From an uncultured Clostridia bacterium (GTDB lineage: Bacteria; Bacillota; Clostridia; TANB77; CAG-508), in contig CANQJG010000001.1 of NCBI GenBank assembly GCA_947624185.1, positions 1 to 60,497 of the forward strand: DNA of 60,497 bases, written 5' to 3'. Position numbers and translations under genes: made by a program. The first letter of the stretch is position 1, and every line of letters starts with the position of its first letter. The notes beneath the pieces were generated by a model. That model made no database searches. It had not been told where the DNA came from and saw only the letters and a list, made by a program, of their open reading frames with translations. Below, one piece after another: positions 38,878 through 59,636 of the stretch.

Positions 38878-41800
38878 TTATTCTATTCTTTTGATAATCA
38901 ATATACCTGTAACTAGTATTAATATTACTGCAACTGATATTATAAGTATTGGTAAATAGTTTCTATTTTCACCAGTTGGTGGTAGTATTATTATTTTTTG
39001 GCTACTGTCTGCATCAATTTCTGTAGGTGTAACTAAATCAACTGATGTGTAAACTTCTTCACTAGTATCATCTCCTAATGATTGGTCTGACATTTCTTGG
39101 TTTCCTGATACTGAGTAAGCCATTCTTCTACCTTGAGTATTTGATGTAGCTATAATTTCTGCTAAGTTGTTATATACAAAGTTTCCTTCGCCAGTATTTG
39201 ATAATAATGCTGATATTACAAGTCTTGTAGGTGTTGTCTTTGACTTATCTTCATCAAATAATGCTGGTAATAATTCGTCTGTTGATAATTTGTCTGTTGT
39301 TACCATTGTATTATATGTTGATGTTTGTGGTAAATATGCTCTATTTACTAAGTCACTATCTAATTTTGCTTCATCTACTATTAATTCACCCTTATCATTT
39401 AATGTTGATGATTTGATTATATCTTGTGCATTTATTACTTTCCAGCTAGAGTCTATATCTTGAATGTTTTCATCAAATTTTGATAAGTTAGATATATAGT
39501 CTATGATTTGTTTTGCACTTGTCTTTGATACTTTTTCTAAGTCATTTGGATATTGTGATTTTCCTGTATAGTAGAATTGCTTATCTATATAGTCAACTTC
39601 ACCTACGTTTTCTACTGATATGTCATAGGTTGCTTCTACTGTAGCTCCTGCAATTAATTCTTCATCCATATATGCCTGTATTAATTCAGGTAATGCTTTA
39701 GAATTTCTTGCAAGTTCATATCCGTCTAATCTGTATCCATTATATTTTACGCTATGTCCATTATGTTTTGCAAAGAACAAGTTATTTACAGATTGCGTTG
39801 TATCAAATAATGTTTGTTTATTTGCAAGTACTAATTTAAAGTTTGTTACTTCTTTATTTAATTTCAATTGTGCCTTTGGTCTTTCTTGTAGTCCTAGGTC
39901 AATGTCACCGATTGTATAAGCTATTTTATTGTTGTTTCCTTGGTTTTCAGTATTATGTGTATTATATTCTATTTCTGTATCTATAATACCTGTTTCTGCA
40001 ACCATAGCAGTATTTGCTATTAATTCATTTATTTTATTATTCTGTGAACTTTTTTGTTCTTCTGTTGTATTGTATTTATATGATCCAAGACTTTCAAATG
40101 AATTTAATATTTCTGCTCTATTATTTAATAATATTTTATCACTTGCTCCTGCAGACCAAGTATTTACTTTTTCTCTATAGCTATATACGTCTTTTGCATC
40201 TGATGCACCTTGTACATTAGCACTTGAGTCTATATCATATACATACATTGAAGATTTATTTGCAAAATTGTTTTCGTTTTGAGTTTCATAATTTTTGTAT
40301 CCTAATATTCCATTATAATTTGTGTCTTGGTTTATTTCTGTTTGATATGTTGTTGTTTTATAATCTTGACCGTTATATGATTTTGCATTTAAACCTTTTT
40401 CTCCTAATAATGTGTTTACATCATTATCTGTATTTAATAATACTGTTTGTTTACTATCTCCATAAGTAAATCTTATGAAGAAGTCTCCTGCTGGTACAGA
40501 TTTGAATGAGTATGCTCCATTATTTGTTCCTAAGCTATCTGCTTTAACACTTAGTATTCCAGGCCCTGTAAGTATTACTTTTGATAAACCTATTCCGCTA
40601 AAGTATCTATCATTATTTTCGCTTATTTTTACTAATTGTCCGTTTGCTCCATAATCATAAGTTGTAGTTCCCCATACTTTTTCACCATTGTAGCTTCCTA
40701 AGAACATACCGTTGTTATCAACATTTTGTACAAGTTCTACAAGTTCTACTTTAACACCGTTTATTAATGGTTCACCGTCTTCATGTTTACCATTTCCAAC
40801 TACAGCTTTGTCGTTTGTAACAGTTCTTGTATCTTCATATACATATCCTGATAGCTTTCTGGTATCATCTTCTCCATTATCTGAAGTTATTACTATCTTA
40901 ATATTTGGTGCCTTATCTGTATCTGTTTCAAGTCTGTTTTCTACTTCACTTGTTGTTGATGATCTTAAATCTCCATTGCTTGTCAAATCAATTTCTTCTA
41001 AGCTTCCGGCGTTAGATTGTGTACTAATAATTCCTGCAACTTTTTCAGAAACTGATGTTTCTACTCTATTATTGTCTTTGTCTAAGTAATTTGGAATATG
41101 AGCATTTTGACTATAATATGAAGAATATCCATTGATTTCTGCTATATTACGTTTTCCAACAGTAATTGTTCCTGTATTTAAGTCTTGGTCTAGTTTTATT
41201 TTTCCTGTTGCTGGATCATTGTTTGCTTTAAATGTTAGATATACATAAGCTTTTTCTCCTGGAGCTAATCTATCACTTCCTGATGCTGATTTGATTCCAG
41301 TAATATATAATGAACTGTAGTTATAATTTCCGTTTGAAAGTTTTTTGTTTTCTTCTCCGTCTGCAAAGCTTGTCTTGTTGCTTACTACTAGTCTACTATT
41401 TTCCATTTTATGTCCTCTAGTATCAGCACCAATATAAGAATTTACATATGTTTCTGTTATGTTTCCATTTTCATCATATTTGTTATATGAATTTACATTA
41501 TATGTTCCATTTCCATTTAATGTTCCGTCAAATGTATATTGGTCTGCATCATAGTAATCAACAATTTCGTTTATTGATGAATATAATGTTTGAGAACTGT
41601 TCTTTACTATTATTCTATATGTTACAAATACTTGCATATTTTTAGCTGTTGCGTTTTCGTCGTTATATAGATATTCTGAAGGACGAACTTCTCTAGTATA
41701 TGAGTATGTACCATTATATAACTCATCAGCTGCTCTTACTTCTATGTTCCAGCTTCCGTCGTCGTTTTCATCTTTTTTAGAATACATATAGTCTTGATTT

Positions 41801-44007
41801 TTACCATTTACAATAACAGTCGCCTTATAAACATCTTTTTGTAAACGTAAATCTTCTGACTCTCTTCTAGTTATTCCAAAGTCTACATATCTACTTTGGT
41901 CTGATTTCTTAGTATATAGATATGAATATGTATTTCCTAATGTAACGGTCTCCACATTTTCAGGTGGATTATCTAAGTCTTCTAATACAAATCTATCATA
42001 TACTGGATATTGCACTAATGATGTGTCACTTGTTAATGGATCATCTACCTGAGTAGTTGCTTCTATCATACAATCTTTGATAAATGTAACAACTCCTGCA
42101 CGATCTACACTTCCTACACCCTTAGATTGTAGCCATTTTGTAAGTTCTGTATAAGCTTTATCATATGAAAGAGTTGATGCTGATAATTCTAAGAACTTAT
42201 TCCATGCATCTTCGAATGTTAGTGCTGTAATGATTCCTTCTTCATTTTTTCCATTTTCAATGTATTCACCATTATCTCTTGCAAGTTTTGATAGCAATGC
42301 ATACGCTTTATGCCATTCACCATTTACTTTGTAATTTTTTGGTGTTGAGTCTATTTTTCCAAACTTGTTATTAAATGCATCTCTTGAAATGTCTTGTGCA
42401 TTTGAATATCCACCTGTTAAATTATTTTTATAATATGTAGCTTGATAAATTTGTCCGTTATATACAAATTTTACATAATATTTTAACATTGGATCTAGTT
42501 TATAGAAATGATATTGTCCATTACTATCTGTTGCAGTTGTAGCAACTAGATTATTGTTCTCATCATATAATCTAACTTCTATTCCTGCAAATGGTGTATC
42601 GTTAGATAATCTTATTCCTGAAATAATTCCTGTTTTAACTTCAGGTAAATCTAACCATACATTTCCACCTAATTCCATTAATAGGTCTGTATCTCCAAAG
42701 AATGGTGAACATGTATCTTCTTTTGCTAATACTGATACTTTAACATTTCCGTCTTCTACCCAGTTAGCCCTTATACCAGCATCTGCTGATCCTTCAATTC
42801 CTAATTTAACAAGCTCTTGTAATCTGCTTGGTACTTCGATTTCTGCTTTATATTTAAATGATTTAATATAGTAATAATGATGTCTTTTACCATTACCGTC
42901 AGGTACTACTCCTTCATCTGTTCCGTCTGTTATGTCACATTGTAATACCTTTAATCCCATTGCTGCAGCTTCGTTTCCTTTATCAGTTAAAGTTCCTGTT
43001 AAATCTAGACCTACATCTTTTTGTGGATCAAAAATGTCTGCAGATACTTTATGTGGATCAAAGTTGTCAGGTACTTCAATTCTTACATTAACATCATTTA
43101 TGTATCCTTCTACTGTTCCTTTTGATCCAATATAAACTGAACCAACTCCTGAAACTTCTTTAATATATCTTATTCTAATTGCTGGATTAACCTTTGTTAC
43201 ACCTTTATTAGGTTTGAATTTAATGTAGAATTCTTTTCCTAATCCAGGGAATTCCATTTCTCTTCCATTTTTATCAATATATTTAATATCTGTTCCGTCT
43301 ATTCCTTCCATTTCGATAGATGCAAAAGGTACTGTATCAGAGAAATCATTAATTCTAGCTAATTCATTGAAGAATATAGTTTTAGCATCAGGTGCTATAT
43401 CTGGATTATTTGTTTTTACATCTAACTTATAAGGTCCAACTATATAGAAGTCATTAATTGAATCTACTAATACTCTACAATTTTTTGATTCATTTGTAAA
43501 TTCAATTTTGCCGTCTTTGTTAAGTATTCCATAATAGAATTGTGCATATTGTTCTGCTCTAGCTTGCAAATCTGATTTTGCATAACCTGTTGCATCATCA
43601 CTAGCATAATCCATAAGCATTTGTTGGAATTTATCTGAGTCTTTATATTGATCTGATGCCCAAATAATATCTTGTATTGCTTCTGCATCCCAATTTCCTG
43701 TTTGTATTGCTGTATAAATTCCGAATGCAACACTTTGCTCCAATTTAATATCTTTACTATATTTATAATCAATTACTCTTGAATTAGTATCTATAGTTGC
43801 ATTTTGAAACCAATATGATCTAAGATGATCAATACAGAATAGATATGCATCATTTAGATAAGCTTCTGTTGCAGGATCTGATATGGTTATACTTTTATCA
43901 CTAGGATTATAAGTTGTTTTACCATATACTGATTGGCTTATTAACCATATAATTGCAGTAACGATTATCATTAGTAAAATTTTAAATTTTTTACTACTTA
44001 ATCTCAT
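38878..44007 (-). CDS. B-type giant wall-anchored adhesin, paralog 2 (1709 aa): thioester-like N-terminal domain, SdrD-B/Cna-B-like stalk, LPPTG sorting signal
   Basis: Signal peptide. AYLFCIDH ... AIQDIIW. GGNVWLDLPEVKTG...GIEVRLYDENNNLVATTATDSNGQYHF. SGYVYEDTRTVTNDKAVVGNG. PAGDFFIRFTYGD. C-terminal LPPTGE (38971-38985) + hydrophobic helix + KRIE. Confidence 0.85.
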   Translation of the reverse strand: MRLSSKKFKILLMIIVTAIIWLISQSVYGKTTYNPSDKSITISDPATEAYLNDAYLFCIDHLRSYWFQNATIDTNSRVIDYKYSKDIKLEQSVAFGIYTAIQTGNWDAEAIQDIIWASDQYKDSDKFQQMLMDYASDDATGYAKSDLQARAEQYAQFYYGILNKDGKIEFTNESKNCRVLVDSINDFYIVGPYKLDVKTNNPDIAPDAKTIFFNELARINDFSDTVPFASIEMEGIDGTDIKYIDKNGREMEFPGLGKEFYIKFKPNKGVTKVNPAIRIRYIKEVSGVGSVYIGSKGTVEGYINDVNVRIEVPDNFDPHKVSADIFDPQKDVGLDLTGTLTDKGNEAAAMGLKVLQCDITDGTDEGVVPDGNGKRHHYYYIKSFKYKAEIEVPSRLQELVKLGIEGSADAGIRANWVEDGNVKVSVLAKEDTCSPFFGDTDLLMELGGNVWLDLPEVKTGIISGIRLSNDTPFAGIEVRLYDENNNLVATTATDSNGQYHFYKLDPMLKYYVKFVYNGQIYQATYYKNNLTGGYSNAQDISRDAFNNKFGKIDSTPKNYKVNGEWHKAYALLSKLARDNGEYIENGKNEEGIITALTFEDAWNKFLELSASTLSYDKAYTELTKWLQSKGVGSVDRAGVVTFIKDCMIEATTQVDDPLTSDTSLVQYPVYDRFVLEDLDNPPENVETVTLGNTYSYLYTKKSDQSRYVDFGITRRESEDLRLQKDVYKATVIVNGKNQDYMYSKKDENDDGSWNIEVRAADELYNGTYSYTREVRPSEYLYNDENATAKNMQVFVTYRIIVKNSSQTLYSSINEIVDYYDADQYTFDGTLNGNGTYNVNSYNKYDENGNITETYVNSYIGADTRGHKMENSRLVVSNKTSFADGEENKKLSNGNYNYSSLYITGIKSASGSDRLAPGEKAYVYLTFKANNDPATGKIKLDQDLNTGTITVGKRNIAEINGYSSYYSQNAHIPNYLDKDNNRVETSVSEKVAGIISTQSNAGSLEEIDLTSNGDLRSSTTSEVENRLETDTDKAPNIKIVITSDNGEDDTRKLSGYVYEDTRTVTNDKAVVGNGKHEDGEPLINGVKVELVELVQNVDNNGMFLGSYNGEKVWGTTTYDYGANGQLVKISENNDRYFSGIGLSKVILTGPGILSVKADSLGTNNGAYSFKSVPAGDFFIRFTYGDSKQTVLLNTDNDVNTLLGEKGLNAKSYNGQDYKTTTYQTEINQDTNYNGILGYKNYETQNENNFANKSSMYVYDIDSSANVQGASDAKDVYSYREKVNTWSAGASDKILLNNRAEILNSFESLGSYKYNTTEEQKSSQNNKINELIANTAMVAETGIIDTEIEYNTHNTENQGNNNKIAYTIGDIDLGLQERPKAQLKLNKEVTNFKLVLANKQTLFDTTQSVNNLFFAKHNGHSVKYNGYRLDGYELARNSKALPELIQAYMDEELIAGATVEATYDISVENVGEVDYIDKQFYYTGKSQYPNDLEKVSKTSAKQIIDYISNLSKFDENIQDIDSSWKVINAQDIIKSSTLNDKGELIVDEAKLDSDLVNRAYLPQTSTYNTMVTTDKLSTDELLPALFDEDKSKTTPTRLVISALLSNTGEGNFVYNNLAEIIATSNTQGRRMAYSVSGNQEMSDQSLGDDTSEEVYTSVDLVTPTEIDADSSQKIIILPPTGENRNYLPILIISVAVILILVTGILIIKRIE

Positions 44008-44009
44008 TG

Positions 44010-47000
44010 CTAACTCCTTTCTATAAAATTATACATTTTGTTTATAATGTGTTTTTTTATTTCATATATTGCTATACCTAATATTGCTAATATTCCTAAT
44101 GTAATTCCTGTAAATGATGCTATTTCTTTACCTGTTGCCATTCCTATTACTACATCTGCTGATGATTTGTCATCTACTACATCTTGGGTATTTCCAGAAT
44201 TTGCATCAGTATCTTCTAATCCATATTCATTATAAGACATTGCTATTTCTGCTGTATTTCTAACTGTACCTGTATTTTCTCCTGTCATCTTTCTGCTTAA
44301 TACTAAATTAACAACTACAGTTTCACCTGGATTAATTAATGTATTTGCTAAGCTTGTATTATAAGCATTTCCGTCTTGTCCTAAATACCATGAACTGTTT
44401 AATTCTGAGCTGAATGTCATTCCTTCAGGAATATAATCTACAATTGATTTTGCATATCCTGAAACTTGACCTTTATTTTCTATACTAATCTTATATTCGA
44501 TTAGAACTGTTGCAAACTCTGCATTAGCTGTTGCTAATTCAACTTTTGCTACTGATAAATCATTTTGATTATAAACTTTTGTCTCTGCCTTAGTGTTTGT
44601 TACAGTTATTCTTGTTATTGTTTTGTTAATGTCTAAATCGAATATTCTATTTTTTACAAGTCCTAAATCTATATTGTATATATTTGCATTGTCTATAACG
44701 ATTGTATCTGTAGTAGCTACTTCTTTCTCATTCATCTTTGTTGTTACGAAGTCTGAATTTTCTGAATCTGATATATTAGCTACTTTATATGATGTTACAC
44801 CATAATTTAAACCGTCTATTTCAACAACAACTATGTAGCTTCCTGGATTTACATTTACAAAAATGTATGTTCCTGATGAATTTGTTGTTGTTACTAATTC
44901 TTTTCCGTCAACATCTTTTGCTACATTTCCAGTTTGCTTGTCATATAGTCTAACTGTTAATCCTGATATTCTTTCTTCTGCTTGTTCTTTTCTACCGTCT
45001 ATATTAGCATCTAACCAAGCTGTTCCGCTGACTTTATATGTTCCTTCTTTTGTTACAACATCATCTATATCTTCATTTCCGCTTCCTGGCTTTCCACTTG
45101 GCTCTGTACTTGAACCTGCTGAATTTTCTGATGTTCCAACAATTTTATGTGTTAATGTATTAGTATTTATAGTATTTTCTCCATACGTTACAGTTGCTAC
45201 ATTTTGTATGTCTTCAACTCTTCCTTTTTGTAACATATATGGGCTTGTTATTATTGTCAATCTTGCTGTTTGAGATGCTTCTATATCTAATGATACTAAT
45301 ATGTCTGATGCACCTATATCTTTTTGTTTTGTTCCATTAGCATCTTGAACTTCATAACTTAATACACCTAATGCTGAAGCAATAGTATCTTTTACTGTTA
45401 CTCTTATTTTTTCACTACTATTATTTTTAACATCTATGTAATATTCTAAATCATCATTATCTCCCATGTTTCCTTCAGGGATGTTGCTTGATAATGAAGC
45501 TGTTACAAAGTTTTGTGCTGTTTTATATGAAACTGTATTTATTTTTGATTCTCCTTCAATTCCTTCACATGTAACACTTCCTGTTATGCTTATTTGCTCG
45601 TCATTTTTTGAATTTACAACTTCAAGATTTATTACAAAACCGTTTGTTGCGCCAGATTTTAATGTACCACCTTTATAAGTTAATGTATGACTTGCTTCAT
45701 CATAGCTGTATTCTGTATTTTCATTATTTAATACATTTACTAATTTGAATTGACTAGGTATACTAACCTTAGCTGTTACATTATTTTTAGCTTCATAGTT
45801 TGCATTTCTGATTTCTACGCTATATTTTACTGTATCTCCTACACTAATTACTTTATTAGTCTTATTAGATGTAGCTAAAGTTTCTATATCTCCTTTAACA
45901 ACACGTACTGTTATTTGTGATGTAACATTTTCTTCTAGTTTATCTGCTGTAACTGTTGCCATAATTTTTTGTTCTGTTGCTTCATTTTCTGCTCCAGTAA
46001 CTATTTGTACTATGGCTAAAGTATATTCTACTGTTTTTGTTTCACCAATGTTAAGTACATCTATTGTAAAACTTAATGTTTTAGTATTGTAATCGTTAGT
46101 ATATTTTGGAACATCTGTCATACTACGAGTTTCATTTACTGGAACTATTCCAGTTGGTAAATTAATATTTACCTTTACATTATTTGCTACATCTTTTCCA
46201 TCATTTTTTACATTTAATCTGTATTTAATAATTTTTCCTTCTTTAACTTGACCATTGTTTTGTATTTGAGTTCCTGTTGTAAATTCAGTAACAATTGGTT
46301 CTAATTTAATTTCAGGTATTTCTCCAGTAGTTAATCCTACTGCCTTAGCTAATACAACGTTTTGTGATTGACCTTGTTCTGCATTGTTGTTGTAATATAC
46401 TGCATAAGTAGATTTAGCTGTATTGCCATATTGTAAGTTTTCAGGAACTTTTATACTATAATCAAATGTCATTGATGAAATTTGTTCTACTGGTCCATTT
46501 GCAATTATTTTATATGCTTTTGAATTTTCATTATAAGCATTTGTCCATGAACTTCCGTCAACTGTTTCATTTGCATTTTCACTATATAATACATTTGCTT
46601 CTAATCCATTTACATTAACTGCACTATTTAATTTTGTATCGAAGTTTGAACCTAAATCATTTTCATTTGCATCTTTGTTCCCTCTAGTTGGTAATGTTCC
46701 TAAAATTGTAACTCCTGTTGCTTCATGACCTAAGTTATTAACAATTGTTCCACTAATTGTTACATTTTTCTCTGTATCATTAGCTTGTATTTTAGAGATT
46801 TTTTCTTCTCCTTCTTGAGCTGTTACCTTTTCTCCATTTACTTCTAATGAGTTAGTTGTAACAAATCCTGTTGGAGCAACTATTCCTATATTTTCTTGTA
46901 CTTGATTAATTTCTCCTGTTGCTTCATTTGAATAATCTAAAGTAATTGTTCCTTCTGTTGTTGGTGCTAGATTATCCAATGTTATATCTGTAACTAATCT

Positions 47001-48833: not shown

Positions 48834-48862
48834 ATTATACAACGTTTTTGCTTTATTTTCAA
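48834..48862 (-). promoter_or_regulatory. consensus sigma-A promoter TTGAAA-17-TATAAT between B1 and A2
   Basis: Minus strand: TTGAAA (48857-48862), 17-nt spacer, TATAAT (48834-48839), about 40 nt upstream of the A2 ATG (48791). Confidence 0.5.
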
Positions 48863-48869: not shown

Positions 48870-51800
48870 TTAGTATTTTTTTAATAATATCTTTTTTCTT
48901 ATCATATAAATTGAAATTCCTACTATTACCAAAGCAGTTATCGTTATTACAATTGCTCGATTTATGTTCTTATTTTCTCCAGTTGGTACCATTACTTGTG
49001 TTTTTTGTCCACTATCTGAATCTATTTCACTTGGAGTAATCCATGTGGTTGATCCGTCTTCTGTTTTATCTTTTGATTGATATGCCATTGCTTGATTTCC
49101 TGCTTTTGATAATTGCATTCTACGTCCTAAAGTATTTGTTGTTTCTAATATTTCTATTAAGTTATTATATGTTAAGTTTTTCTCTTGAGTAGTATTAGTT
49201 AATAATGTAGATAATGTCAAATATAGTTCTCTTCTTGACCTTGAATATGGCTCTACACTATCGACTGCTCTTGGAACTAATGAACCATTTAATTTCTTTG
49301 TTGTGATTAATATATTATAAGTATTTAAATTATCTTCATATATATCATTTACTAGGTTATCATCTTCTGTTGAAGTTGATCCTAACAATTTAGTAACTGT
49401 AACTAATCCCCAATCATCTGATTCGTTTTGATAGTTTGGTTCGTAGTTTATTTCATTAGTTACATAGTCTATAACATTTACTGCTCCTGTTTTTGACATG
49501 TTTCCAACTGTTGCACTGTTTGTTTTACCGGTGTAATAGAATTGCTTATCGTTATAATCTACTTCTCCTATATTATCTACTGTAATTTTATAGATCAATC
49601 TAATTGTTGCACCACTCATAAGTTCTTCATCCATATAAGCAGTTACTAATTCTTCCATTCTTTCTTCTTGTTCTTTAGCTATAGCTGTTCTTAATCTATA
49701 TCTATTTCCTGTTTCATATACATTTTTATGTGTATAATGTGAACCATAAGATAGATTTGGTATAGATTGAGTCGCATCAAATAGAATTTGTCCACTAGCA
49801 AGTCTTACTTGAACATTTACAAGCTCTTTTGATAATGCAAGCTGTGCTTCTGGTCTTTCTGTAAGTCCTAAGTCTATATCTTGAACATTATAACTCAAGT
49901 CTTGTATATAATTTTTTGTTGTCTCATCATAAACTTGTGTTTTCGTTTTGTTATATTCTACTTCTGTATTTATTACACCTGTCTGAGCAACCATAGCTGT
50001 ATTTTTTATCAATTCTTCTATTGCTTTTCTTTGATACTCTGCTGCTGTTGCTTTATCATTTCTATCAAGTGCATCTTGTGCTTTTAACACTAACTGCGTT
50101 GCAGAAGCTAATACTTCAGCTCTGTGATTCTTTAATGTCTGCAATCCTGTAATAGATGAATTTGATGTACTTCCACTTGAATAAGACATTTCCTTTTCTC
50201 TATATGAATATACATCTTTTGCATCTGATACATTCTTTGCAGGTGCACTTTTTGCAATATCATAATAGTACATTGAAGCTTTGGTTTTATAATCTTTGTA
50301 ATTTTGATCATCAAAGTTTATAAATCCTGTTATTCCATTATAACTTGAATTTTGGTCAATTCCTTTTTGATATACTGTTGATTTATAGTCTTGTCCAGTA
50401 TATGATCTGCTATTTAATCCAGTTGTACCCAATATTCCATTAGCACTACCTTGGCTGACAAATTGCGATTTTTGAGTATTTGTTAATTGATTTATCAATT
50501 TTTGAACATCATTATTATTTGAATTTGTTAGTACTGTTTGACTGGTATCTCCATATTTAAATCTTATAAAGAAGTCTCCTGGTGGAAGTGATTCAAACAT
50601 ATACTCTCCTGCTCCTTCTGTCAAACTCTTTGCAGTTACTGCAAATATTCCTGGTCCTGATAATATAACTTTAGATGATTTTGTTCCACTATAATATCTT
50701 GTATCATTAATATTTGCTTTTAAATTTGTTCCATAGCTAATGCTTGACCATACATGTTCTCCTGTATAATTACCAGTAAAGAAGCCTTCTGCTGTCGTTT
50801 CTTGCACTAATTCTACTAATTCAACAGTAACACCATTGATTTTTTTATCAGCATTGTTTTGTACATCTTTATCTTTTGTATTATATTCTCCGTTTCCAAT
50901 AACTGCATTATCGGAGATATCTGTCCTTGCATCTTCAAATACATATCCACTGAAATTTCTAGGGTCCTTTTGATCAATCTTTAATTTTAAGTTTCCAGCC
51001 TTATCACAATCATCTTCTAATCTATTTTCCCATGAATTATTACTTGAGATGATATCTCCATTACTGTTTAAGTCTTTAGCCTTTAAACTTCCTGGATTTG
51101 AGTCAACATCTATAACTCCAGCTTTTGACCATGTATAGTTTCCTTCAGTTCCATTTCTATAGAATGTCTTATATCCATTTATTTCTGCAATATTTCTCTT
51201 TCCTATTGTGTCTTCAACTTGACCATTCAATAATTTACCTATATCTTGGTCAATTTTTACTTTCTGTGTAGATGTATCATTTACAACTTTAAATGTAATA
51301 TACGCATAAGTAAGTTGTCCTGGGCTTAGTCTTTCTTCTCCATTATCTTCTCTTATTCCAGTTAAAAATAGTGAAGAATAATTATATATTTCATTTATAT
51401 TACTACTATTTGCATTATATCCTGTCATAGAGCCATAGATAGATGTATAAATTGAATTTTCGCTTACATTTAAATCACCTATTTTGTTACCTTTTCTATC
51501 TCCTAAGAATGTATTGTCTTTTATTATTGTACTATTTACATCAAATGTAAAATTGCTTGAATCATAATAGTCAACTATTTCCGATACTGATGTAAATATA
51601 TTTTGTGATTGATTTTTTATTGCAATTTTATAAGTTACAAATACTTGTAAATTCTTTTGATCTTCTGTTTTTGCATTTCCGTCAGGGTGTGCGTCAGAGC
51701 CGTCATATAGATATTCCGATTTTCTTATTTCTCTTGTATATGTATTTCCACCATATTGCTCTCCAACATAATCTTTATTACTATTTCTTTTTGCAGAATC

Positions 51801-54800
51801 AGATACTTGTGGTACAGTTTGTGCAGGATATTTTGCTTCCGTTTCTTTGTATTCGTAAGTTCCTGTTCCCATATTAACATACCAGTTTCCGAACATATCA
51901 GTTTCTGATTTCTTTTTATCATATACATACTCTTGTTTCTTTCCATTTACTAATACTGTACATTTATATAAATCTTTTGTAAGAGCTAAGTCTGCATTTG
52001 TTCTTAGATACATTCCAAAATCTACATGTCTACTCATATCTTTAGATTTGTTATACAAATTTGGGTATCCCAAGGTAGAGCCATTTTGTGGGCTACTTAC
52101 ATTTTCTAATGTAAATTTCTTTTCTTCTGGATATGCTATAGTTGAAGCAGAAATCAATGTATCCATAATATAATTCCATATATTATTTACTTCTGCATCT
52201 GAAATTTTTCCTATAGCCTGTAAACGTTGTTTGAATGTTCCTGATAAATTACTATAAGTTTCATTTTTACCGTCTTTTAGACTATAATAAGAACTATTCA
52301 TTGTATTAGCATTTGTTTGAATAAAGTTATGTGAATTAGTTGCTATAGTTTTAAAGATCTGCAATGCATCATAATATCTAAATGAACCTGAGTTAGTGCC
52401 CGAATTCGTATATTTTATATAGTTTCCACTTGAATCTTCTATTTTAGAATACAAACCATACGCTTTTCGATTGCTTCCATTACTTATATAATTTCTTGGT
52501 GAACTATAAATTTCATCAAATTTATCATTGAAATTCGTTCTATTAGAAGCACTTGGCTTTCCTTCATCTGCTGTTGAATATCCACCAGTTAAATTATTAG
52601 TATATGTTGTGTCTTCAAATCTCATACCGTCATATGTAAATACTATCCTATATTGATGCATTGGATTTAGTCCTTGAAAACCATATTCACCTTGTGCATC
52701 TGTTCTTGTACATAATCTTCTAGTATTATAATATCTAGATTTGGTTGTTGCATCATATAATTCGACCTGTATTCCAGCAAGATTCAAAGAATGTTCATTT
52801 TTCTTTGATCCAAATTCCCCGAGCTTGACACTCGGTAATGATTGCCATACATTTCCGCCAATATACATATTTATATCTTTACCTGGAAGTGTAATCTTTT
52901 CTACTGCACCTTGCAAGTTTGAGAAAAATTTCCATTGTGTTTTTCGCGTTTCATCCCATTCATACCTAATTTCAATTTCTCCATCTCCATCTATATCTAG
53001 AGTATAATCTTTTTCTGTATCAATTTCACCCTCTATATATGTATCGATTTTCTTCCAGTAATGTATCTCTTGTCCTGGTTTAGTTGGATCTGGTGGTGGT
53101 GGTAGGACTGGTGGGTTTGGCTTGTCTGGCTCTGGATCAATTGGCATTGCAATGCTATCAAATTGCACTGCTGGTTGAATTTTCCCATTCTTTTCAATAA
53201 TTTGTATTTTTGAAACTTTAGCCGCAAAATATATTTTAACATCATTTTTAAGTTGAGCTAATATTGCATCTATAGCTCTATTATATGCATTATCATCATA
53301 ATGGTCTCCTGTAGGCCACCATGCTGACCAGTTAGTTCTATAAGTACTTCCGTCAGGTAAATTGTATACTGCAAGTTGCATTCTTCGTTCCGTATATCTA
53401 TCTAAATATCTACTATCTTCATTAGTTGCTTCAAAATGCTGATAGGCAGCATTTGCACTATAAAATGTTTGATTATGATTAGTACATTTCCATACTTCTC
53501 TATCTTCAGTCGGATAACCCATGCTAGGTGTTATGTTTGTATTAGGATAAAATTGATTTTTATAATAATATCCAATTTCCTGTTCTAGAATAACTTGAAT
53601 AGCCTTTTCATCATTTAATCCCCAGCTACTACAAAGTTCTTTTATTTTTTGTCTAAGAGCAAGTTCTAATGAATTTCCCCAATTTAACAATAATCCCTTT
53701 AATTCATCAAATGCATCTTGATTAGCCGATGTAGGATAACTTCTACCTTTACCTTCAGGATCATTCTCAGGCTTATTTACAACTAACCAATATCCAGAGC
53801 TAATATCTCTTTCTATCTTTAGTCCAATATGCGAAATTTCCAATGTTTTAATTACTGATTGAAATATTCCAGCATAATCCATTGTCATATTATATGTTAT
53901 GCTCGATGATCTATATACATAGGCTTTTCCTGAGAATTTTGTCATATAATTAATACGAATAACTGGTTTAATCATTTGGATTTGATCTGCATCTACTGAT
54001 GTTGTATACCTTACATAAAATTTCTTTCCAAACTCAGGGAAAACGACTCCATTTACAGCACTTATTACTGCTCCATTTTCATCAATTAATTGTATATTAC
54101 TAACATAATTCTTTTTATTATTTGTTCCATCTATTTCAGCATATACTGAACCTGTACAAAATTGATTAGCTGTTGTTTCTCCCGGGTTTCGTTTAAGTAT
54201 TTCATCATATACCAGTTTTCCCATTGATTTATTCCAACCATTAACCCCAGTATCATCACAATTGTCAAAGGTAATAGAATAAGGTCCAACAGTATATGTA
54301 CAGTTACTTTGGTCTACCATTACTTTAAGCTTAGCATCATTATCTTTAGTTGGACTACTTGGACTACATTTTAATCCCAATTTATTACCATTTAGTGCTA
54401 TATATACAAAATTAGCAAATTGATAAGATCTTCCTGCTCGATTAGATTCTGTTGAGGATATTTTATCCTTGTTTCGATCTATATCTATTAAGCAACTTTT
54501 CTCATACCCATAATCACTCCATTGATATGAAGACCATACTACCCTTTGTAATTCTTCGTTCTTTGCTCCATTTGCTCTAGCATAAGCTATACATTGTGGG
54601 ATATCTACTACATTCTTTCTTTCCCATTCTACCACTTGTTGAGCATTATCAATACCACCGTCAGGTACAAATAGTTTCTCTGTTGCGGAATATGTTAATC
54701 TTCTTGGTAATGCCCAGCCATGTCCAGCACAATATGTATCACTTCTAAATGTATACATTTCATTTGCATTAGCTCCACTAAGACTTCCACCTGTTATTTT

Positions 54801-54953
54801 TAGCTCACCTAAAGAGGCAACTATATCTTCTACGTCTTGAGATGTTTCTTTAGTTTCAGCATGATTTAAAACTTTTCCTAATTGTATTATACTTACTAGA
54901 ATAGCTGAAACTACAAATATAATCATACATCCATATTTAAGTCTTTTTTTCAT
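48870..54953 (-). CDS. B-type giant wall-anchored adhesin, paralog 1 (2027 aa): thioester-like N-terminal domain, extra ~240-aa insert with polyproline linker, SdrD-B/Cna-B-like stalk, VPTG sorting signal
   Basis: DTYCAGHG ... ELQRVVW. PIDPEPDKPNPPVLPPPPDPTKPG. GGNVWQSLPSVKLG. SGYVFEDARTDISDNAVIGNG. PPGDFFIRFKYGD. C-terminal MVPTGE (48978-48992) + helix + RKKILLKKY. Confidence 0.85.
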   Translation of the reverse strand: MKKRLKYGCMIIFVVSAILVSIIQLGKVLNHAETKETSQDVEDIVASLGELKITGGSLSGANANEMYTFRSDTYCAGHGWALPRRLTYSATEKLFVPDGGIDNAQQVVEWERKNVVDIPQCIAYARANGAKNEELQRVVWSSYQWSDYGYEKSCLIDIDRNKDKISSTESNRAGRSYQFANFVYIALNGNKLGLKCSPSSPTKDNDAKLKVMVDQSNCTYTVGPYSITFDNCDDTGVNGWNKSMGKLVYDEILKRNPGETTANQFCTGSVYAEIDGTNNKKNYVSNIQLIDENGAVISAVNGVVFPEFGKKFYVRYTTSVDADQIQMIKPVIRINYMTKFSGKAYVYRSSSITYNMTMDYAGIFQSVIKTLEISHIGLKIERDISSGYWLVVNKPENDPEGKGRSYPTSANQDAFDELKGLLLNWGNSLELALRQKIKELCSSWGLNDEKAIQVILEQEIGYYYKNQFYPNTNITPSMGYPTEDREVWKCTNHNQTFYSANAAYQHFEATNEDSRYLDRYTERRMQLAVYNLPDGSTYRTNWSAWWPTGDHYDDNAYNRAIDAILAQLKNDVKIYFAAKVSKIQIIEKNGKIQPAVQFDSIAMPIDPEPDKPNPPVLPPPPDPTKPGQEIHYWKKIDTYIEGEIDTEKDYTLDIDGDGEIEIRYEWDETRKTQWKFFSNLQGAVEKITLPGKDINMYIGGNVWQSLPSVKLGEFGSKKNEHSLNLAGIQVELYDATTKSRYYNTRRLCTRTDAQGEYGFQGLNPMHQYRIVFTYDGMRFEDTTYTNNLTGGYSTADEGKPSASNRTNFNDKFDEIYSSPRNYISNGSNRKAYGLYSKIEDSSGNYIKYTNSGTNSGSFRYYDALQIFKTIATNSHNFIQTNANTMNSSYYSLKDGKNETYSNLSGTFKQRLQAIGKISDAEVNNIWNYIMDTLISASTIAYPEEKKFTLENVSSPQNGSTLGYPNLYNKSKDMSRHVDFGMYLRTNADLALTKDLYKCTVLVNGKKQEYVYDKKKSETDMFGNWYVNMGTGTYEYKETEAKYPAQTVPQVSDSAKRNSNKDYVGEQYGGNTYTREIRKSEYLYDGSDAHPDGNAKTEDQKNLQVFVTYKIAIKNQSQNIFTSVSEIVDYYDSSNFTFDVNSTIIKDNTFLGDRKGNKIGDLNVSENSIYTSIYGSMTGYNANSSNINEIYNYSSLFLTGIREDNGEERLSPGQLTYAYITFKVVNDTSTQKVKIDQDIGKLLNGQVEDTIGKRNIAEINGYKTFYRNGTEGNYTWSKAGVIDVDSNPGSLKAKDLNSNGDIISSNNSWENRLEDDCDKAGNLKLKIDQKDPRNFSGYVFEDARTDISDNAVIGNGEYNTKDKDVQNNADKKINGVTVELVELVQETTAEGFFTGNYTGEHVWSSISYGTNLKANINDTRYYSGTKSSKVILSGPGIFAVTAKSLTEGAGEYMFESLPPGDFFIRFKYGDTSQTVLTNSNNNDVQKLINQLTNTQKSQFVSQGSANGILGTTGLNSRSYTGQDYKSTVYQKGIDQNSSYNGITGFINFDDQNYKDYKTKASMYYYDIAKSAPAKNVSDAKDVYSYREKEMSYSSGSTSNSSITGLQTLKNHRAEVLASATQLVLKAQDALDRNDKATAAEYQRKAIEELIKNTAMVAQTGVINTEVEYNKTKTQVYDETTKNYIQDLSYNVQDIDLGLTERPEAQLALSKELVNVQVRLASGQILFDATQSIPNLSYGSHYTHKNVYETGNRYRLRTAIAKEQEERMEELVTAYMDEELMSGATIRLIYKITVDNIGEVDYNDKQFYYTGKTNSATVGNMSKTGAVNVIDYVTNEINYEPNYQNESDDWGLVTVTKLLGSTSTEDDNLVNDIYEDNLNTYNILITTKKLNGSLVPRAVDSVEPYSRSRRELYLTLSTLLTNTTQEKNLTYNNLIEILETTNTLGRRMQLSKAGNQAMAYQSKDKTEDGSTTWITPSEIDSDSGQKTQVMVPTGENKNINRAIVITITALVIVGISIYMIRKKILLKKY

Positions 54954-55001
54954 TTTGGATTAATTGCCCCCTTTCTTTTGTATTTTTATTTCTTTTTATA
55001 A

Positions 55002-58000
55002 TTATCTGTTAAGTAATTTATATATTACATAACCTGCTAATGTCATTGCTGTTACTATGCATACTGATATGGTTATAATTAATATTGTATTTTTTACAGT
55101 ATTATCTTTTATAACTATATCTGCTACTTTTACATTTATTTTTGCTAAGTCTGTTATATTTGTTTTTGCACCATATTGATTGTATACTTCTCTTAGCTCT
55201 GAAGTAGTATGTATTAAATCAACATCTTCTGAAGTTATATCCTTTACTAATATTAATTTAATATCTTGTGACTCATTAGGTCTAAGCTTTGTATTTGCCA
55301 TACTTGTATTTATGGCATCTCCATTAGCATCTATATACCAATCTGCATTTAGTTCAGATATAAATTTCATTCCTTTTGGTATATAGCTTGCAATATTTGT
55401 TGCATATCCTTCTACATTACCTTCATTTTTTATTGTTATAAGGTATTCTATTACTAATGTGATATTTTGTTTTTTATTTAATTGTAGAGTAGCATTGTCA
55501 GCATTGAAATCATAGACTTTTGTATCTTTTCCATTTATTACACTTATTTTTGATATTTTTTCTTCTAATTCTAGATTAAATTTTTCTATGTCTTTTAATC
55601 CTAAATCTATATTGTAAATATTTCCACCGTCTATTGTAATCACATTTGTGGTTGCTTTTTCGTTAGATTCTATAAAATCTGAGTCTTCATTTGGTGTTAA
55701 ATCTTTTTCTTGATAATTCGAAATCTCATAGTTTGCTGTATCATAGTTTGCTATAACTATATATTGTCCTTTTGCTAAGTTTTCGAATTTATATTCTCCA
55801 TTATCATTTGTATATACTTCTATGTCTTTTCCATTCATATCTTTTACTATTGAATTTGTTGCAACATCATAAAGTGTTACTGATACTTTTGATATTCCAA
55901 CTTCATCATCATCTTGTTTTGAATTAGAATTTTTGTCATACCATATTTTACCTGAAATAGAATTAATATTTTCCTGTTCTTCTAGAGTTTCATCTGTGAT
56001 GTTTGTGTTAAAATTAGATGTTCCTTCTATTTGATGTTTTAGTGCATTAATATTTAATTCCATACCGTTAACAGTAACTGATGCTTGATTTTCTGTTTCC
56101 TTAATTTGACCAACGCTATCTAATATATATGGTTTTGCAATTACTGTTACTCTTAATGTTTCTCCTGGATTTACATCTTCAGTTACTAGTACGGATGATG
56201 CAGGATTTTCTTCTGTATATCCAATAACTCCATTTTTGACGGTGTAACTAATTAGTTGTAGTTCATTTGGTAATTCATCTGTAATGCTTATATTTGCTGT
56301 CTTTTTAGAGTCATTTTTTACATTTATATAATATTCTATTGTATCAGTATCTAACATTTTATTAGATATGTTACTACTCATTGTTGCTGAGAAACCTTTT
56401 GTGTCCATTACTGTATTTATATATTTATTAGATTTTATTTCCTTCTCTGCACCGTCAAAAGTAGCTGTTGCTGATAATTCTATTGCTTGGTTTGGTTCAT
56501 CACTATAAGTTACTCTTGCATTTAATAAGAACTCTTTATGACTTTCTATGCTATCTATATTATAAGTTAAAATACCTGTTTTTTCATCAAAACTTCCACC
56601 TTCGCAATTAGTTATTTCTAGATATTTTGGTATATTAACTTTTACAGTAACATTGTTTAGATTTTCATGATTGTTATTGTCAAGTATTACATAATAACAC
56701 AAATCTTCATTAATAAGTACATCTTCGTTATATAGCATATTACTTAGTCTTAATTCTAGTGTTCCTTCTGTTATTGTATTTTCAAATGAAGCACTTGAAT
56801 TTTCTAACATATTTTCTGCCGAAATCTCTGTTCTAATTATGTATATATCATTTACATTTGCCCATGAATATACTTCTACACTTATTTCTATATCCTTTGT
56901 TTCTCCCGCTTCAATCCTATCTATTGTTTGTGATAATTCATTAGAATAATCATAATATCTTTCCATTCCACTATCTTTATGATATTTTACTAGATAAAAT
57001 TCTGTATTATTGTTATCATCTTGTTTGTTAATTTTAACTGTTACATTCTCTGCTGCCTTTTTACCTGTATTAGCCACATGGATAATGTATTTAACAATTT
57101 TTCCAGCATTTACTGTGTCTCCATTATTTATTTGTTCTTTGTTGTAATAGTTTTCTGCTGTAATAGTTGTCTTTATTATTGGAATATTTTCTGTTGCTAT
57201 GCTTAATAATTTTGCCATGACAACATTTTTGCTTATTCCTTCTTCTGATTTATTATCATAATAAACTGAGTATGTTGAAATTGCTTGTTTTTCATAATCA
57301 ATATTTCTTGGAACATTTATGTCATAATTGAATGTTACTTTTTGAGCTGGCTCTATATTTGTTTTTGCTACTATCATGTAAGATTTTACATTTTCATTTA
57401 TTGCTGTAGTCCAGCCATTATCAGGATCAGATAATTCATATCCTGCATTTCCATTGCTTGAATAATATACATCTGCATCAATTCCGTTTACTGATATGGC
57501 ACTCGCAAGAGTGGTCGTGAATGTTGAGTTTATTTTTTCGCTACTTGAATTTGTCAATGTAGTTTCTTCAGCTGGTACTCTTCCTAATATCATTAAGCCT
57601 GATGTTGATTCTTGTAAATTGCTTACAATTGTACCGCCTAATTTAATTCTCTTTTCTATATCATTTGCTGCAATCTGCATTGTAGCATCTTCACTAATAG
57701 CTGTTACTATTTGACTAATTGCTCCTTGATTTGCTGTTACAAATCCTGTTGGTGCAATTATATTTACTGGAGTTTGTGTTGATTTTAGCTCATTTCTTGC
57801 TTTGTTAATATATTGTAATTTAATATTTTCATTAGAACTTACAGCAAAATTATTTAATGATAAATCTGCAACAATTCTTATAATTGAACCTTTTGTGTTT
57901 GGTATATTGTTATATTGTGTTTGTGTTCCTTGTAATTTTAAATATATTTGTTTTCCAATCATTTTAAAATCAATTGGTTTTAGCTCATTTTCATATATTA

Positions 58001-59636
58001 ATTTTGCATCTTTTAAATTTACTTCAGATATTTGTTCAGGTAATGTTATCAATATTTCTGGATCTGCGTATAATGCATCACTGATATCATCTTTTTCTAA
58101 TGTTGCTGTTATAACTACATTTTCATTTTTAACTATTGTTGATAGATTTTCTTTACTTATGCTAATTGTAGCTTTTGATTCTGGTTCTATTAAATTAATA
58201 TTTTTTTGTATACGATTAGCTAGAATTTCTTGTCCTTGATATAATATATGTGCTTCAACACTATTTTCAATTGTTGCTACTCCTGCAAGAGATTGTTTAG
58301 TATAAGTTAAATTTGGATTTACAACTTTATCTAATGCAATGTTTATGTTTCCTTCTTGTACTGGTTTACTAACAATAAATTTAAGTCCATAATGATTTAC
58401 TTCCAATTGCAAATTATCTTTATTCAAATTTCCTAATTCTGTGTCATTGCTGTCTAATACTCTTATTGTTCCTTCTTCTCCAAGCATTTTTATTAATTCA
58501 TCTTTGTCAACTGTGATTTTTCTATTCAATGTTAAATAATTGCTTGCATCTTCTCTTATTTGAATTTCATCTACAAATTCTGCTAATCCAATGTTTATCT
58601 GATATCCTGATTTGTAAGGGGTTTCCAATTTATTTTCAGTTCTATTTAAATTGGTGTACATATATCCTTTGTTTATACCGTTGTCCCCAACCATATTTAC
58701 ATCTACTAAATTTCCAACTGTGTTTTGAACATTGTAAACAAGTTTATCAGTTCTTGCTTGTATCTCTTTTCCTGAAACTGTTTTTGCTAACATAACTGAT
58801 ATTGTTTCTATACTTGTTTGATCTGTATTTGTGTCATATATATAAGTTACTATACATTCATCATTAGAATTCCATTGAATTTTGTCATCTTGTGTATATT
58901 TTTTATTTAATACTGTTACTTGATTTTGATATGTATAACTTAGATTTTCGCCTGAAGCAATTACCTTACTTGGCTCTTGTCCATTTATCATAGGTGCTAA
59001 CATTTGAACTGTTTTTTCACTAATTGGAAATTTGTTATCTTGAACTCCTGTATTTACTTTAAAACTTATCAATGTTTTATTTCCATATTTTAAGTATCTT
59101 GTTAATTCTTGAGAAATGCTTGCTTGTACATCCATATCCCATTTTAAATGCTCATTAATTGTTTTTGATATTTTCTCTTCTTTTCCATTTTCATTTATAT
59201 AAGTCGCATCAAGCTTTATAGTGCTATCTTTATCAAAATAGTCATTATCCATTATATCTTTCTTTTCAAACTCTATTGGGATAGAGTAATTTACTGGTTG
59301 ATCACTATTCACCTGACCTAGCTTAATTTTATTGTCTTTTATATTAACATCATCGTCTATTTTATAATTATTATTTTCAATTGTGATTGTTCCTTCTTTT
59401 ATGTAACCTTCATTTTTAATAGCTAAATCAATGTCTAAATTAAGCTTTTCATCAATATTTGCTACATCAGTATCATTGTTGATTGTTGCATTAAATATTA
59501 TGTTACTCTCTTCGTTTAACATAGCAATTTCATTTGCAGCATAACTAACAACAGGTATAAAGTTGGATCCAACTAATACTATTGCTGTGAATGTTGATGT
59601 GAATTTTGCTGTGATTTTACTTAGATACTTATGCAT
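55002..59636 (-). CDS. A-type giant DUF11-repeat surface protein, paralog 1 (1544 aa), C-terminal TM anchor
   Basis: Signal peptide ...NFIPVVSYA. FNATINND, INKGYMYTNL and DUF11-like GKIVKYIIHVANTGKKAAENVTVKI. SdrD-B-like ISGKIWYDKNSNSKQDDDEVGISKVSVTLYD. Ends in TILIITISVCIVTAMTLAGYVIYKLLNR with no xTG motif. Confidence 0.85.
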   Translation of the reverse strand: MHKYLSKITAKFTSTFTAIVLVGSNFIPVVSYAANEIAMLNEESNIIFNATINNDTDVANIDEKLNLDIDLAIKNEGYIKEGTITIENNNYKIDDDVNIKDNKIKLGQVNSDQPVNYSIPIEFEKKDIMDNDYFDKDSTIKLDATYINENGKEEKISKTINEHLKWDMDVQASISQELTRYLKYGNKTLISFKVNTGVQDNKFPISEKTVQMLAPMINGQEPSKVIASGENLSYTYQNQVTVLNKKYTQDDKIQWNSNDECIVTYIYDTNTDQTSIETISVMLAKTVSGKEIQARTDKLVYNVQNTVGNLVDVNMVGDNGINKGYMYTNLNRTENKLETPYKSGYQINIGLAEFVDEIQIREDASNYLTLNRKITVDKDELIKMLGEEGTIRVLDSNDTELGNLNKDNLQLEVNHYGLKFIVSKPVQEGNINIALDKVVNPNLTYTKQSLAGVATIENSVEAHILYQGQEILANRIQKNINLIEPESKATISISKENLSTIVKNENVVITATLEKDDISDALYADPEILITLPEQISEVNLKDAKLIYENELKPIDFKMIGKQIYLKLQGTQTQYNNIPNTKGSIIRIVADLSLNNFAVSSNENIKLQYINKARNELKSTQTPVNIIAPTGFVTANQGAISQIVTAISEDATMQIAANDIEKRIKLGGTIVSNLQESTSGLMILGRVPAEETTLTNSSSEKINSTFTTTLASAISVNGIDADVYYSSNGNAGYELSDPDNGWTTAINENVKSYMIVAKTNIEPAQKVTFNYDINVPRNIDYEKQAISTYSVYYDNKSEEGISKNVVMAKLLSIATENIPIIKTTITAENYYNKEQINNGDTVNAGKIVKYIIHVANTGKKAAENVTVKINKQDDNNNTEFYLVKYHKDSGMERYYDYSNELSQTIDRIEAGETKDIEISVEVYSWANVNDIYIIRTEISAENMLENSSASFENTITEGTLELRLSNMLYNEDVLINEDLCYYVILDNNNHENLNNVTVKVNIPKYLEITNCEGGSFDEKTGILTYNIDSIESHKEFLLNARVTYSDEPNQAIELSATATFDGAEKEIKSNKYINTVMDTKGFSATMSSNISNKMLDTDTIEYYINVKNDSKKTANISITDELPNELQLISYTVKNGVIGYTEENPASSVLVTEDVNPGETLRVTVIAKPYILDSVGQIKETENQASVTVNGMELNINALKHQIEGTSNFNTNITDETLEEQENINSISGKIWYDKNSNSKQDDDEVGISKVSVTLYDVATNSIVKDMNGKDIEVYTNDNGEYKFENLAKGQYIVIANYDTANYEISNYQEKDLTPNEDSDFIESNEKATTNVITIDGGNIYNIDLGLKDIEKFNLELEEKISKISVINGKDTKVYDFNADNATLQLNKKQNITLVIEYLITIKNEGNVEGYATNIASYIPKGMKFISELNADWYIDANGDAINTSMANTKLRPNESQDIKLILVKDITSEDVDLIHTTSELREVYNQYGAKTNITDLAKINVKVADIVIKDNTVKNTILIITISVCIVTAMTLAGYVIYKLLNR

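Follow-up and report, generated by a model that had tools for sequence, protein, structure and literature searches.

The 60,497-nt window analysed here, from an uncultured Clostridia bacterium (GTDB lineage TANB77, CAG-508; assembly GCA_947624185.1, contig CANQJG010000001.1, positions 1 to 60,497 of the forward strand), carries on its minus strand four consecutive giant open reading frames (ORFs) of two alternating types, in the order A1–B1–A2–B2, which together form a block of ~20.8 kb. A1 (55002–59636, minus strand; 1,544 aa) comprises a signal peptide, an A-specific immunoglobulin (Ig)-like region, three CLIPPER stretches, an SdrD_B module and a C-terminal module with transmembrane (TM) helix and basic tail, in which a T-G motif has been lost and NTVKN stands in its place. 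B1 (48870–54953, minus; 2,027 aa) combines an enlarged thioester-type head (C75, LQRVVW) with a stalk, and ends in MVPTG, a TM helix and a basic tail. A2 (44010–48791, minus; 1,593 aa) is a headless rod protein that served as our type member for modelling, and B2 (38878–44007, minus; 1,709 aa) is a putative thioester-domain adhesin with an LPPTG sorting signal. The spacers measure 48 nt (A1–B1), 78 nt (B1–A2) and 2 nt (A2–B2). A preliminary description of this DNA, made from its letters alone, had listed the same four ORFs, lengths and spacers together with sequence motifs said to be shared within each type; the ORF list confirms the former, and every quoted motif is present in both copies. 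The pairing it proposed also holds in all-against-all blastp comparisons, where A1 and A2 share 36% identity over their full length (~1,600 aa) and the figures for B1 and B2 are 38% over 1,486 aa and 25% over a further ~250 aa in the N-terminal head, the SdrD_B module being the sole part common to A and B at this level. With copies only 36–38% identical, each having its own orthologues, an assembly artefact or a recent tandem duplication is ruled out.

The B1–A2 spacer, to which the preliminary description assigned a consensus promoter, contains a sigma-70-type promoter-like site, TTGAAA-17-TATAAT (48834–48862, minus), which matches the consensus at 11 of 12 positions and is the top promoter-like site among the 20 kb scanned. 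An intrinsic terminator hairpin with a U-run lies 3′ of B2 (38819–38859, minus; −26.7 kcal/mol, z = −8.8), and folding revealed no RNA structure in either of the internal spacers. The internal promoter, the terminator after B2 and the unstructured spacers suggest that the four genes form one unit with an internal promoter. The main promoter presumably lies in the 316-nt divergent intergenic region upstream of A1 (59637–59952), which has one weak promoter-like site (9 of 12 positions; 59699–59727, minus).

The A-then-B arrangement recurs far beyond this window. Database searches yielded many full-length relatives of A and of B, on contigs whose lengths agreed pair by pair, and we then examined two samples of relatives. 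In the first, a 12-sequence A alignment searched against species-representative genomes returned 146 relatives in 77 loci, all from gut metagenome-assembled genomes (MAGs) titled uncultured Clostridia or Clostridium and originating from rabbit, mouse, human, sheep and deer. In these 77 species-level genomes, 81 A genes have at least 1.5 kb of sequence downstream, and behind every one of them stands a giant gene of the same orientation; this gene is a recognisable B in 72 cases, at a median gap of ~15 nt, and in the other nine is either a frameshifted B fragment or a divergent giant ORF. The second sample, B-centred and independent of any selection on A, drew 243 relatives in 74 loci from metagenome contigs. 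Here 65 B genes have 900 nt or more of upstream sequence, and 57 of them stand directly behind an A gene (49 behind an A recognised by profile, eight behind a contig-truncated ORF with an A-type tail), and six more belong to B–B–A or B–A–B clusters that contain an A. The adjacency of A and then B is thus near-obligate, and the check proposed at the outset, whether the two families are neighbours in other genomes, comes out positively in both directions. Pairing is kept even for the most distant B-like proteins (25% identity) and for those with replaced or extended heads, whether headed by a VWA domain or carrying a Peptidase_S11 domain. A close relative has the same A–B–A–B order ahead of spoIIE, a 32%-identical relative has a single A–B pair, a gut contig from the Hadza has two pairs, and one pair with a 2,755-aa B occupies a different genomic context.

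The duplication itself is old and involved the unit as a whole. A1 comes closest to the upstream A copies found in other species (73, 60 and 48% identity) and A2 to the downstream copies (82, 67 and 59%), with B1 and B2 split likewise; in one MAG, an A1/B1-type and an A2/B2-type pair lie on separate contigs (L039, L013). That the A1/B1 genes group with upstream copies and the A2/B2 genes with downstream copies supports, at the level of sequence relationships, a single duplication of the unit long ago after which both partners were kept, as the preliminary description had supposed. At the same syntenic site, after the genes for a penicillin-binding protein (PBP) and MinC, one relative encodes an in-frame A–B fusion of 2,910 aa (P0153; L089, positions 4210–12942). 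In this protein the ISTG-helix-VKKGK tail of A leads straight into the signal-peptide-like helix of B, an arrangement in which both ectodomains would stay outside the cell.

The A proteins are built as rods. In A2, the A-specific N-terminal region (residues 31–830; 46302–48701, minus) is a chain of beta-sandwiches, followed by a CLIPPER/DUF11 block (residues ~840–1230; 45102–46274, minus), which is the least conserved part of A, and by the C-terminal anchoring module (residues 1250–1593; 44013–45044, minus), which is the most conserved. The CLIPPER/DUF11 family (Pfam PF01345) is matched at 49.5 bits by A1 and 42.3 bits by A2 (cutoff 24.6), and the corresponding NCBIfam model TIGR01451 at 36.6 and 35.7 bits (cutoff 24), while the Pfam SdrD_B model exceeds its cutoff in A1, A2 and B2 and falls below it in B1 (24.2 against 29.7). 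The ‘many DUF11-like repeats’ initially ascribed to A are therefore real as to type and overstated as to number: Pfam detects three stretches in each protein, and the remaining Ig-like part of A, outside CLIPPER and SdrD_B, has no Pfam match. CLIPPER has recently been shown to be a CnaA-like, cross-linked stalk domain of fibrillar adhesins that holds an intramolecular isopeptide bond (PMC12617251).

Sequence searches of the PDB with A1, A2, B1, B2 and a B-family profile gave no useful relative. An AlphaFold2 (AF2) model of A2 residues 1–1200 (mean predicted local distance difference test, or pLDDT, score of 87) is all-beta, an unbroken run of beta-sandwich domains whose fold matches are generic Ig/MG arrays only (the PrgB stalk, alpha-2-macroglobulin, complement proteins and a mastigoneme); neither the model nor the fold search reveals a recognisable adhesive head domain in these 1,200 residues. 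A is also constant in length: at ~1,600 aa its coefficient of variation (CV) is 3.4% (n = 78), against 13% for whole B and 39% for the B head. The N-terminal 800 aa specific to A retrieve 930 representative protein clusters at E ≤ 1e-3, of which 418 also pass E ≤ 1e-30, nearly all of them 1,550–1,750 aa long and with the matching segment at the same place. The most conserved feature of this region is the motif I-x-K327-G-Y-M-Y-T-N, in which the Lys is invariant. Together with the modelled fold, these data indicate that A is a length-constrained all-beta rod without a head.

The B proteins, on present evidence, are headed adhesins. The head of B2 (residues ~30–440; 42688–43920, minus) resembles a Class II thioester domain (TED), with Cys58, the helix motif Q112/W116 and Gln397 as candidate functional residues, the last as the candidate bond-forming Gln; that of B1 (residues ~33–698; 52860–54857, minus) has TYC75AG, LQ136RVVW and KIQPAV at the equivalent places and a much larger insert. 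Miller et al. (2018; PMC6194298) describe three TED motifs, namely [YFL]C-hydrophobic-hydrophilic, TQxx-hydrophobic-W, and a weak hydrophobic-Q-hydrophilic-hydrophobic-hydrophobic motif with the bond-forming Gln. All three are found in the B head. The Cys motif, LFC58ID in B2, has its Cys in 68 of 74 B heads; the accessory motif, IQ112DIIW116 in B2, has its Trp in 71 of 74 and its Gln in at least 59 of 74, the leading Thr not being conserved. Among the 38 heads that can be aligned, C58 is kept in 37, Q112 in 36, W116 in 37 and Q397 (within RLQELV) in 36, and the stretch from the Cys to the bond-forming Gln is taken up by a variable, large, beta-rich insert. The fold of B2 agrees: for an AF2 model of residues 1–1050 (mean pLDDT 78), the best Foldseek match is 6FWV, a TIE protein of Bacillus anthracis (E = 4.5e-8, probability 0.99), followed by 6FWY, TIE86 of Enterococcus faecium (E = 2e-4), both of them Class II TEDs; UafA and SdrD follow as multi-domain alignments. 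Global TM-scores are low, owing to the multidomain nature of the 1,050-aa query model. From motifs and modelled fold, B is a divergent Class II-like TED adhesin with a predicted thioester bond, in keeping with the ‘covalent-type’ adhesin first proposed.

Behind the head, B is a long stalk. Conservation in B is lowest in the head and highest over the C-terminal 1,250 aa; ~600 aa of this conserved stalk, including a helical insert, have no Pfam match, SdrD_B being the one Pfam family recognised in the B proteins. Of features typical of Sdr/Clf-type MSCRAMMs, Pfam detects the SdrD_B stalk module only; it gives no SdrG_C_C or Collagen_bind match that would point to an N2–N3 DEv-IgG ligand-binding region (dock-lock-latch). 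Across the family the head is modular, being a TED, a VWA domain, or a TED with a DD-carboxypeptidase-like domain. In the last of these variants (P0139–P0150; e.g. L085, 10001–16453) a complete Peptidase_S11 domain (DD-carboxypeptidase/PBP5-like; residues 701–939, 149 bits) lies between head and stalk; the variant is widespread, and one of its clusters has 950 member sequences. The S11 module hints at peptidoglycan stem peptides, and hence other bacteria, as a possible target. A further variant, P0161, has two VWA domains.

It is at their C-termini that A and B prove to be related. The B2 anchoring module (residues 1370–1709; 38881–39900, minus), which ends in LPPTG (1675–1679), a TM helix and KRIE, is homologous to that of A2, which begins with the SdrD_B domain and continues through a last Ig-like domain (DLGL...K...IEY...NTAEI) and an acidic linker to GMATG, with a TM helix and basic tail behind it. 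When profiles of the C-terminal 240 aa of A (77 sequences) and 360 aa of B (72 sequences) are compared with hhalign, they align over 212 columns with a probability of 99.65% (E = 4.5e-25), in a register that lays V-I-x-x-x-T-G-(K/E) of A over I-L-P-P-T-G-E of B and also aligns the helix and the basic tail. Tails of B mostly read LPPTG, TPPTG or MPPTG, with (V/A)PTG in the B1 clade, and the motif position is Thr in at least 46 of 72. Tails of A show x-x-T-G-(K/R/E) before the helix in 73 of 78 sequences, the five exceptions forming the A1 clade, A1 of this window among them. A thus probably carries a degenerate form of the B sorting signal, lost in the A1 clade only. The statement in the preliminary description that A-type proteins lack LPXTG applies to A1 and has to be amended for A2 and most of the family, and its contrast between a membrane-tethered A and a wall-anchored B needs revision: with homologous C-terminal modules and T-G in register, A is not simply membrane-tethered.

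A third kind of giant surface protein in the window, G2 (22897–31611, minus; 2,904 aa), has 14 SpaA domains, a CLIPPER domain and an AgI/II C2 domain, and no partner gene. Its C-terminus is 29% identical to that of A2 and has an A-type tail (ASIIIAISTG, helix, KRKKGK), which suggests that this genome has one or more stand-alone adhesins that use the x-x-T-G signal.

The locus was described as something other than a classical sortase–pilus operon, and the sortase and motif searches agree with that view. Pfam scans of the window's ORFs of at least 150 aa, the one at 16887–17837 (plus strand) excepted, detect no sortase; in the 77 A-selected loci, the sequence up to 10 kb from A contains no ORF with a TLxTC-type sortase signature, which answers the concern that a sortase might lie just outside the window; and sortase Pfam families are absent from all gene lists of the inspected relatives' loci. 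Regular expressions for the YPK pilin motif and the E-box find neither in A1, A2, B1 or B2. The nearest regulators in the window are a two-component pair 30 kb away.

We read this locus, with a probability of roughly 0.6, as two ancient paralogous copies of a conserved bicistronic cassette by which uncultured low-GC gut Clostridia build an adhesive surface structure out of two proteins. A and B would be co-transcribed and translationally coupled, given gaps of 2–48 nt here and typically ~15 nt, and so would be made together, in the same place and in similar amounts. A would be exported by the Sec pathway as a headless rod of the A-specific Ig-like region, then CLIPPER, then SdrD_B. B, likewise Sec-exported, would be a fibrillar adhesin whose distal Class II-like head is expected to capture an amine of its ligand covalently, held out on a conserved ~1,250-aa stalk of predicted isopeptide-type domains. 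Both proteins end alike, in a last Ig-like domain, acidic linker, (LPP)TG, hydrophobic helix and basic tail, and both would be displayed through this common C-terminal module, B being processed by a sortase encoded elsewhere in the genome and A either by the same enzyme or else kept in the membrane. B would then be the variable, ligand-binding partner and A the constant, structural one, associating with or supporting B through their conserved wall-proximal parts. Between the two paralogous pairs, target specificity and anchoring have probably drifted apart, since T-G is gone from the A1 clade and tails of the B1 clade read (V/A)PTG. That A and B work as a functional pair is what we infer from their conservation, their tight coupling and the one gene fusion.

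Several observations weigh against this interpretation. The co-conservation of A and B is no proof that they touch or form a complex, because operon partners have a common history. A strict 1:1 ratio is not universal, as a few A–B–B or B–A–B clusters attest, and two of the 65 B genes (L113, L126) have no A in the available sequence. The basis for the thioester is limited to motifs and fold, and the curated models for such domains (Pfam TQXA_dom, NCBIfam TIGR03934) do not match B at E ≤ 0.01. In one B clade the Gln of the accessory motif is replaced by Ala, with Cys and Trp kept (e.g. SWETAYGIW; L046, L049, L051, L052, L064, L072); published TED work has found that this Gln is dispensable for bond formation. 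The sorting signals, too, are atypical. On the B2 tail, TIGR01167 (LPXTG_anchor) scores 15.1 bits, just under its cutoff of 15.9, and the A tails match no curated sorting signal in NCBIfam at E ≤ 10, exosortase-type CTERM models included; at that threshold the tail scans return only sub-threshold LPXTG_anchor matches, to B2 and G2. One whole clade of B, 16 of the 72 tails (22%), has LPPFG with Phe for Thr (e.g. L050, L054, L057, L059–L063, L066, L068–L071, L075, L076, L079), its partner A proteins retaining K-T-G. Sortases cleave after the Thr of their motif. An unusual anchoring enzyme may be involved where this Thr is not conserved in B.

A more far-reaching version can be put forward only tentatively: A and B might constitute a new kind of Gram-positive surface fibre that does without a pilus-specific sortase, A forming the shaft or base and B an interchangeable tip, joined to it covalently or through the homologous wall-proximal modules. 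The covalent route would use either the sorting-signal residue of B or a spontaneous isopeptide or thioester reaction with a conserved Lys of A such as K327. If so, this would be a two-gene ‘plug-in head’ adhesion organelle, conserved in at least 77 species-level genomes of uncultured Clostridia from human and animal guts, among which the A family by itself spans 930 protein clusters.

Two other explanations deserve to be weighed against the paired cassette. A and B may be two independent adhesins that are co-expressed and nothing more, A binding a ligand of its own through its Ig-like N-terminal domains, or acting as a periscope or shield, with no physical cooperation between the two. Stalk-like domains can indeed bind ligands, and the boundary between stalk and adhesive domain is blurred (PMC9210967); moreover G2, with its A-type anchor, stands alone in the window, and some clusters depart from 1:1. 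Yet order, adjacency and the ~15-nt spacing persist down to 25–30% identity and through head swaps, unit duplication and relocation. Independent adhesins are usually gained, lost and shuffled freely. An A–B gene fusion exists, and a length held within 3.4% is unusual for a free-standing repeat adhesin, all of which makes independence doubtful. Alternatively, the pair could be a minimal heteromeric pilus, for which a sortase encoded at a distance would join the Thr of the B LPPTG to a Lys of A (e.g. K327), B serving as the tip and A as the shaft and, through its own T-G signal, as the base. The TED and VWA heads of B are the two classic tip-adhesin modules of pili; the sorting signal comes in a different variant on each partner, as it does on the tip and base subunits of a pilus; and A, headless and length-constrained, has its invariant Lys inside the most conserved motif of its N-terminal region. 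We nonetheless consider a pilus unlikely. Pilus operons almost always come with their own class C sortase, which is missing beside the pair in the 77 A-selected loci and from the gene lists of the other inspected loci; YPK and E-box were not found; A and B are 5–10 times the size of pilins; 22% of B proteins have Phe for Thr at the cleavage position; and the natural fusion already has both ectodomains on one chain.

The readings that assign the pair to sporulation or to conjugation are poorly supported. A spore-surface appendage comes to mind because the gene directly downstream is spoIIE, both in the window and at many other loci, and seems highly improbable to us: the neighbourhood as a whole, with mreBCD, PBP2 and minC upstream, is one of general cell-envelope synteny, the pair also occurs in unrelated contexts (L006, L086, L088), the promoter inside the block resembles sigma-70 sites, A and B alike carry Sec signal peptides and anchor signals (wall or membrane) typical of vegetative surface proteins, and a strong terminator separates B2 from spoIIE. 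Still more remote is a mating or aggregation adhesin of a mobile element, comparable to PrgB or to the Class II TED adhesin of plasmid pLS20, which is reportedly required for conjugation in Bacillus subtilis (PMC8092201). This dependence of pLS20 transfer on a Class II TED adhesin is suggestive, as are the fold match of A to the PrgB Ig-like stalk and a TraG-like gene ~10 kb downstream of the pair in L088. Against it, dozens of species keep the pair at the same chromosomal place amid housekeeping genes, the window has no relaxase, type IV secretion system (T4SS) or integrase genes, its GC content is uniform at 27–32%, and the PrgB match concerns generic Ig arrays only.

Other features of the window lie around the four genes. 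Divergent from A1 is a gene for a small Asn-rich protein (59953–60497, plus strand), truncated by the end of the window and without a Pfam family, which is the most conserved neighbour of the cassette. Of the 41 loci that encode it, 40 place it 200–700 nt upstream of A; its N-terminal (MNDNDM..KKAQ.MI.NNQIPD) and C-terminal (DDMSKLL.SLKPYLR..KK.K.DEY) ends are conserved, and it may be a mere syntenic neighbour. Further along, a 2,724-aa GH94 protein (cyclic beta-1,2-glucan synthase/phosphorylase-like; 8659–16833, minus) is encoded alongside the two-component system mentioned above (6473–8556, minus). A GH94 gene directly follows A1/B1-type pairs in three relatives (L039, L080, L087), showing that the neighbourhood is partly syntenic. 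The spacer between B2 and spoIIE contains a GC-rich structured island in AT-rich surroundings (38540–38730), bounded by the inverted repeat TATAGTCATTTT...AAAATGACTTATA; its RNA fold has −55.1 kcal/mol (z = −4.2), and none of 200 shuffled sequences was as stable. This island, which has no Rfam match and whose core sequence was not found in 88 related loci, could represent either a small RNA or some miniature mobile element. The whole window was also scanned for Rfam families and tRNAs, with no matches. The ‘pilin’ mentioned for TANB77 in the literature belongs to the small type IV-like pilins and has no relationship to A or B.

The paired cassette matters for the biology of a lineage that is uncultured, low in GC, and common in the gut metagenomes of humans, mice, rabbits and ruminants. 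One closed MAG is 1.57 Mb, and the cassette, at 10–20 kb, takes up ~1% of such a genome and has been kept through speciation, duplication and relocation; this cost and retention suggest that it is central to attachment to host mucus, food particles or other microbes. The question raised is why a giant adhesin with a TED, VWA or DD-carboxypeptidase-like head should be encoded behind a headless rod of fixed length with a common anchor module. The family also offers a large natural set of divergent Class II-like thioester domains that escape the present Pfam and TIGR models, a sorting motif that drifts between LPPTG, LPPFG and x-x-T-G and may indicate an unusual anchoring enzyme, and surface antigens with potential use in labelling, enriching or culturing these bacteria.

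How does this cassette compare with known systems? The nearest counterparts of B are the Class II TIE proteins (BaTIE/BA5258, 6FWV; EfmTIE86, 6FWY; SaTIE), which have the N-terminal TED with its three motifs and a beta-rich insert between Cys and Gln, a stalk of isopeptide-type Ig domains and an LPXTG-like end, and which provide the best fold matches. B differs from them in being three to five times larger, in the ~600 aa of conserved stalk with a helical insert that lies outside Pfam, in escaping the TED models of Pfam and TIGR, in the drift of its motif to LPPFG in one clade, in a head that can be replaced by VWA or extended with a DD-carboxypeptidase-like domain, and in standing nearly always behind a dedicated partner gene, which is unreported for known TIE proteins. 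Heteromeric pili (Cpa/FCT of Streptococcus pyogenes, RrgA–RrgB–RrgC, SpaCBA) likewise place a TED- or VWA-headed adhesin beside a headless Ig-domain partner, with cross-linked domains and two variants of the C-terminal sorting signal. Unlike them, the A–B locus has yielded no pilus-specific sortase, pilin motif or E-box, consists of two genes only, encodes subunits of 1,500–2,700 aa rather than 30–100 kDa, and shows no sign of polymerisation.

Resemblances also extend to adhesins in which head, stalk and anchor reside on a single polypeptide, and to surface rods that have no head. The CLIPPER/DUF11 and SdrD-type fibrillar adhesins (Acinetobacter silvestris B9T28_05395, 9IFR; Staphylococcus aureus SdrD) share with A and B the CLIPPER and SdrD_B stalk domains and the same logic of signal peptide, stalk and anchor, and both types of stalk domain have been shown or predicted to hold intramolecular isopeptide bonds (PMC12617251). 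Here, by contrast, a headless A and a headed B with homologous anchors are encoded by separate, paired genes. The periscope or shield proteins SasG and Aap resemble A as long, headless, repetitive beta-rods, a form in which A could set the height of a neighbouring adhesin or modulate its access; they vary in length through repeat number, whereas A is fixed at ~1,600 aa (CV 3.4%) and is not composed of near-identical repeats. The preliminary description knew of no comparable pair, and we found none described in the literature searched. We rate A and B as adhesins of the fibrillar and TIE kinds brought together in an obligately paired organisation, in which a rod of constant length and an adhesin with an exchangeable head are encoded one behind the other and carry the same anchoring module.

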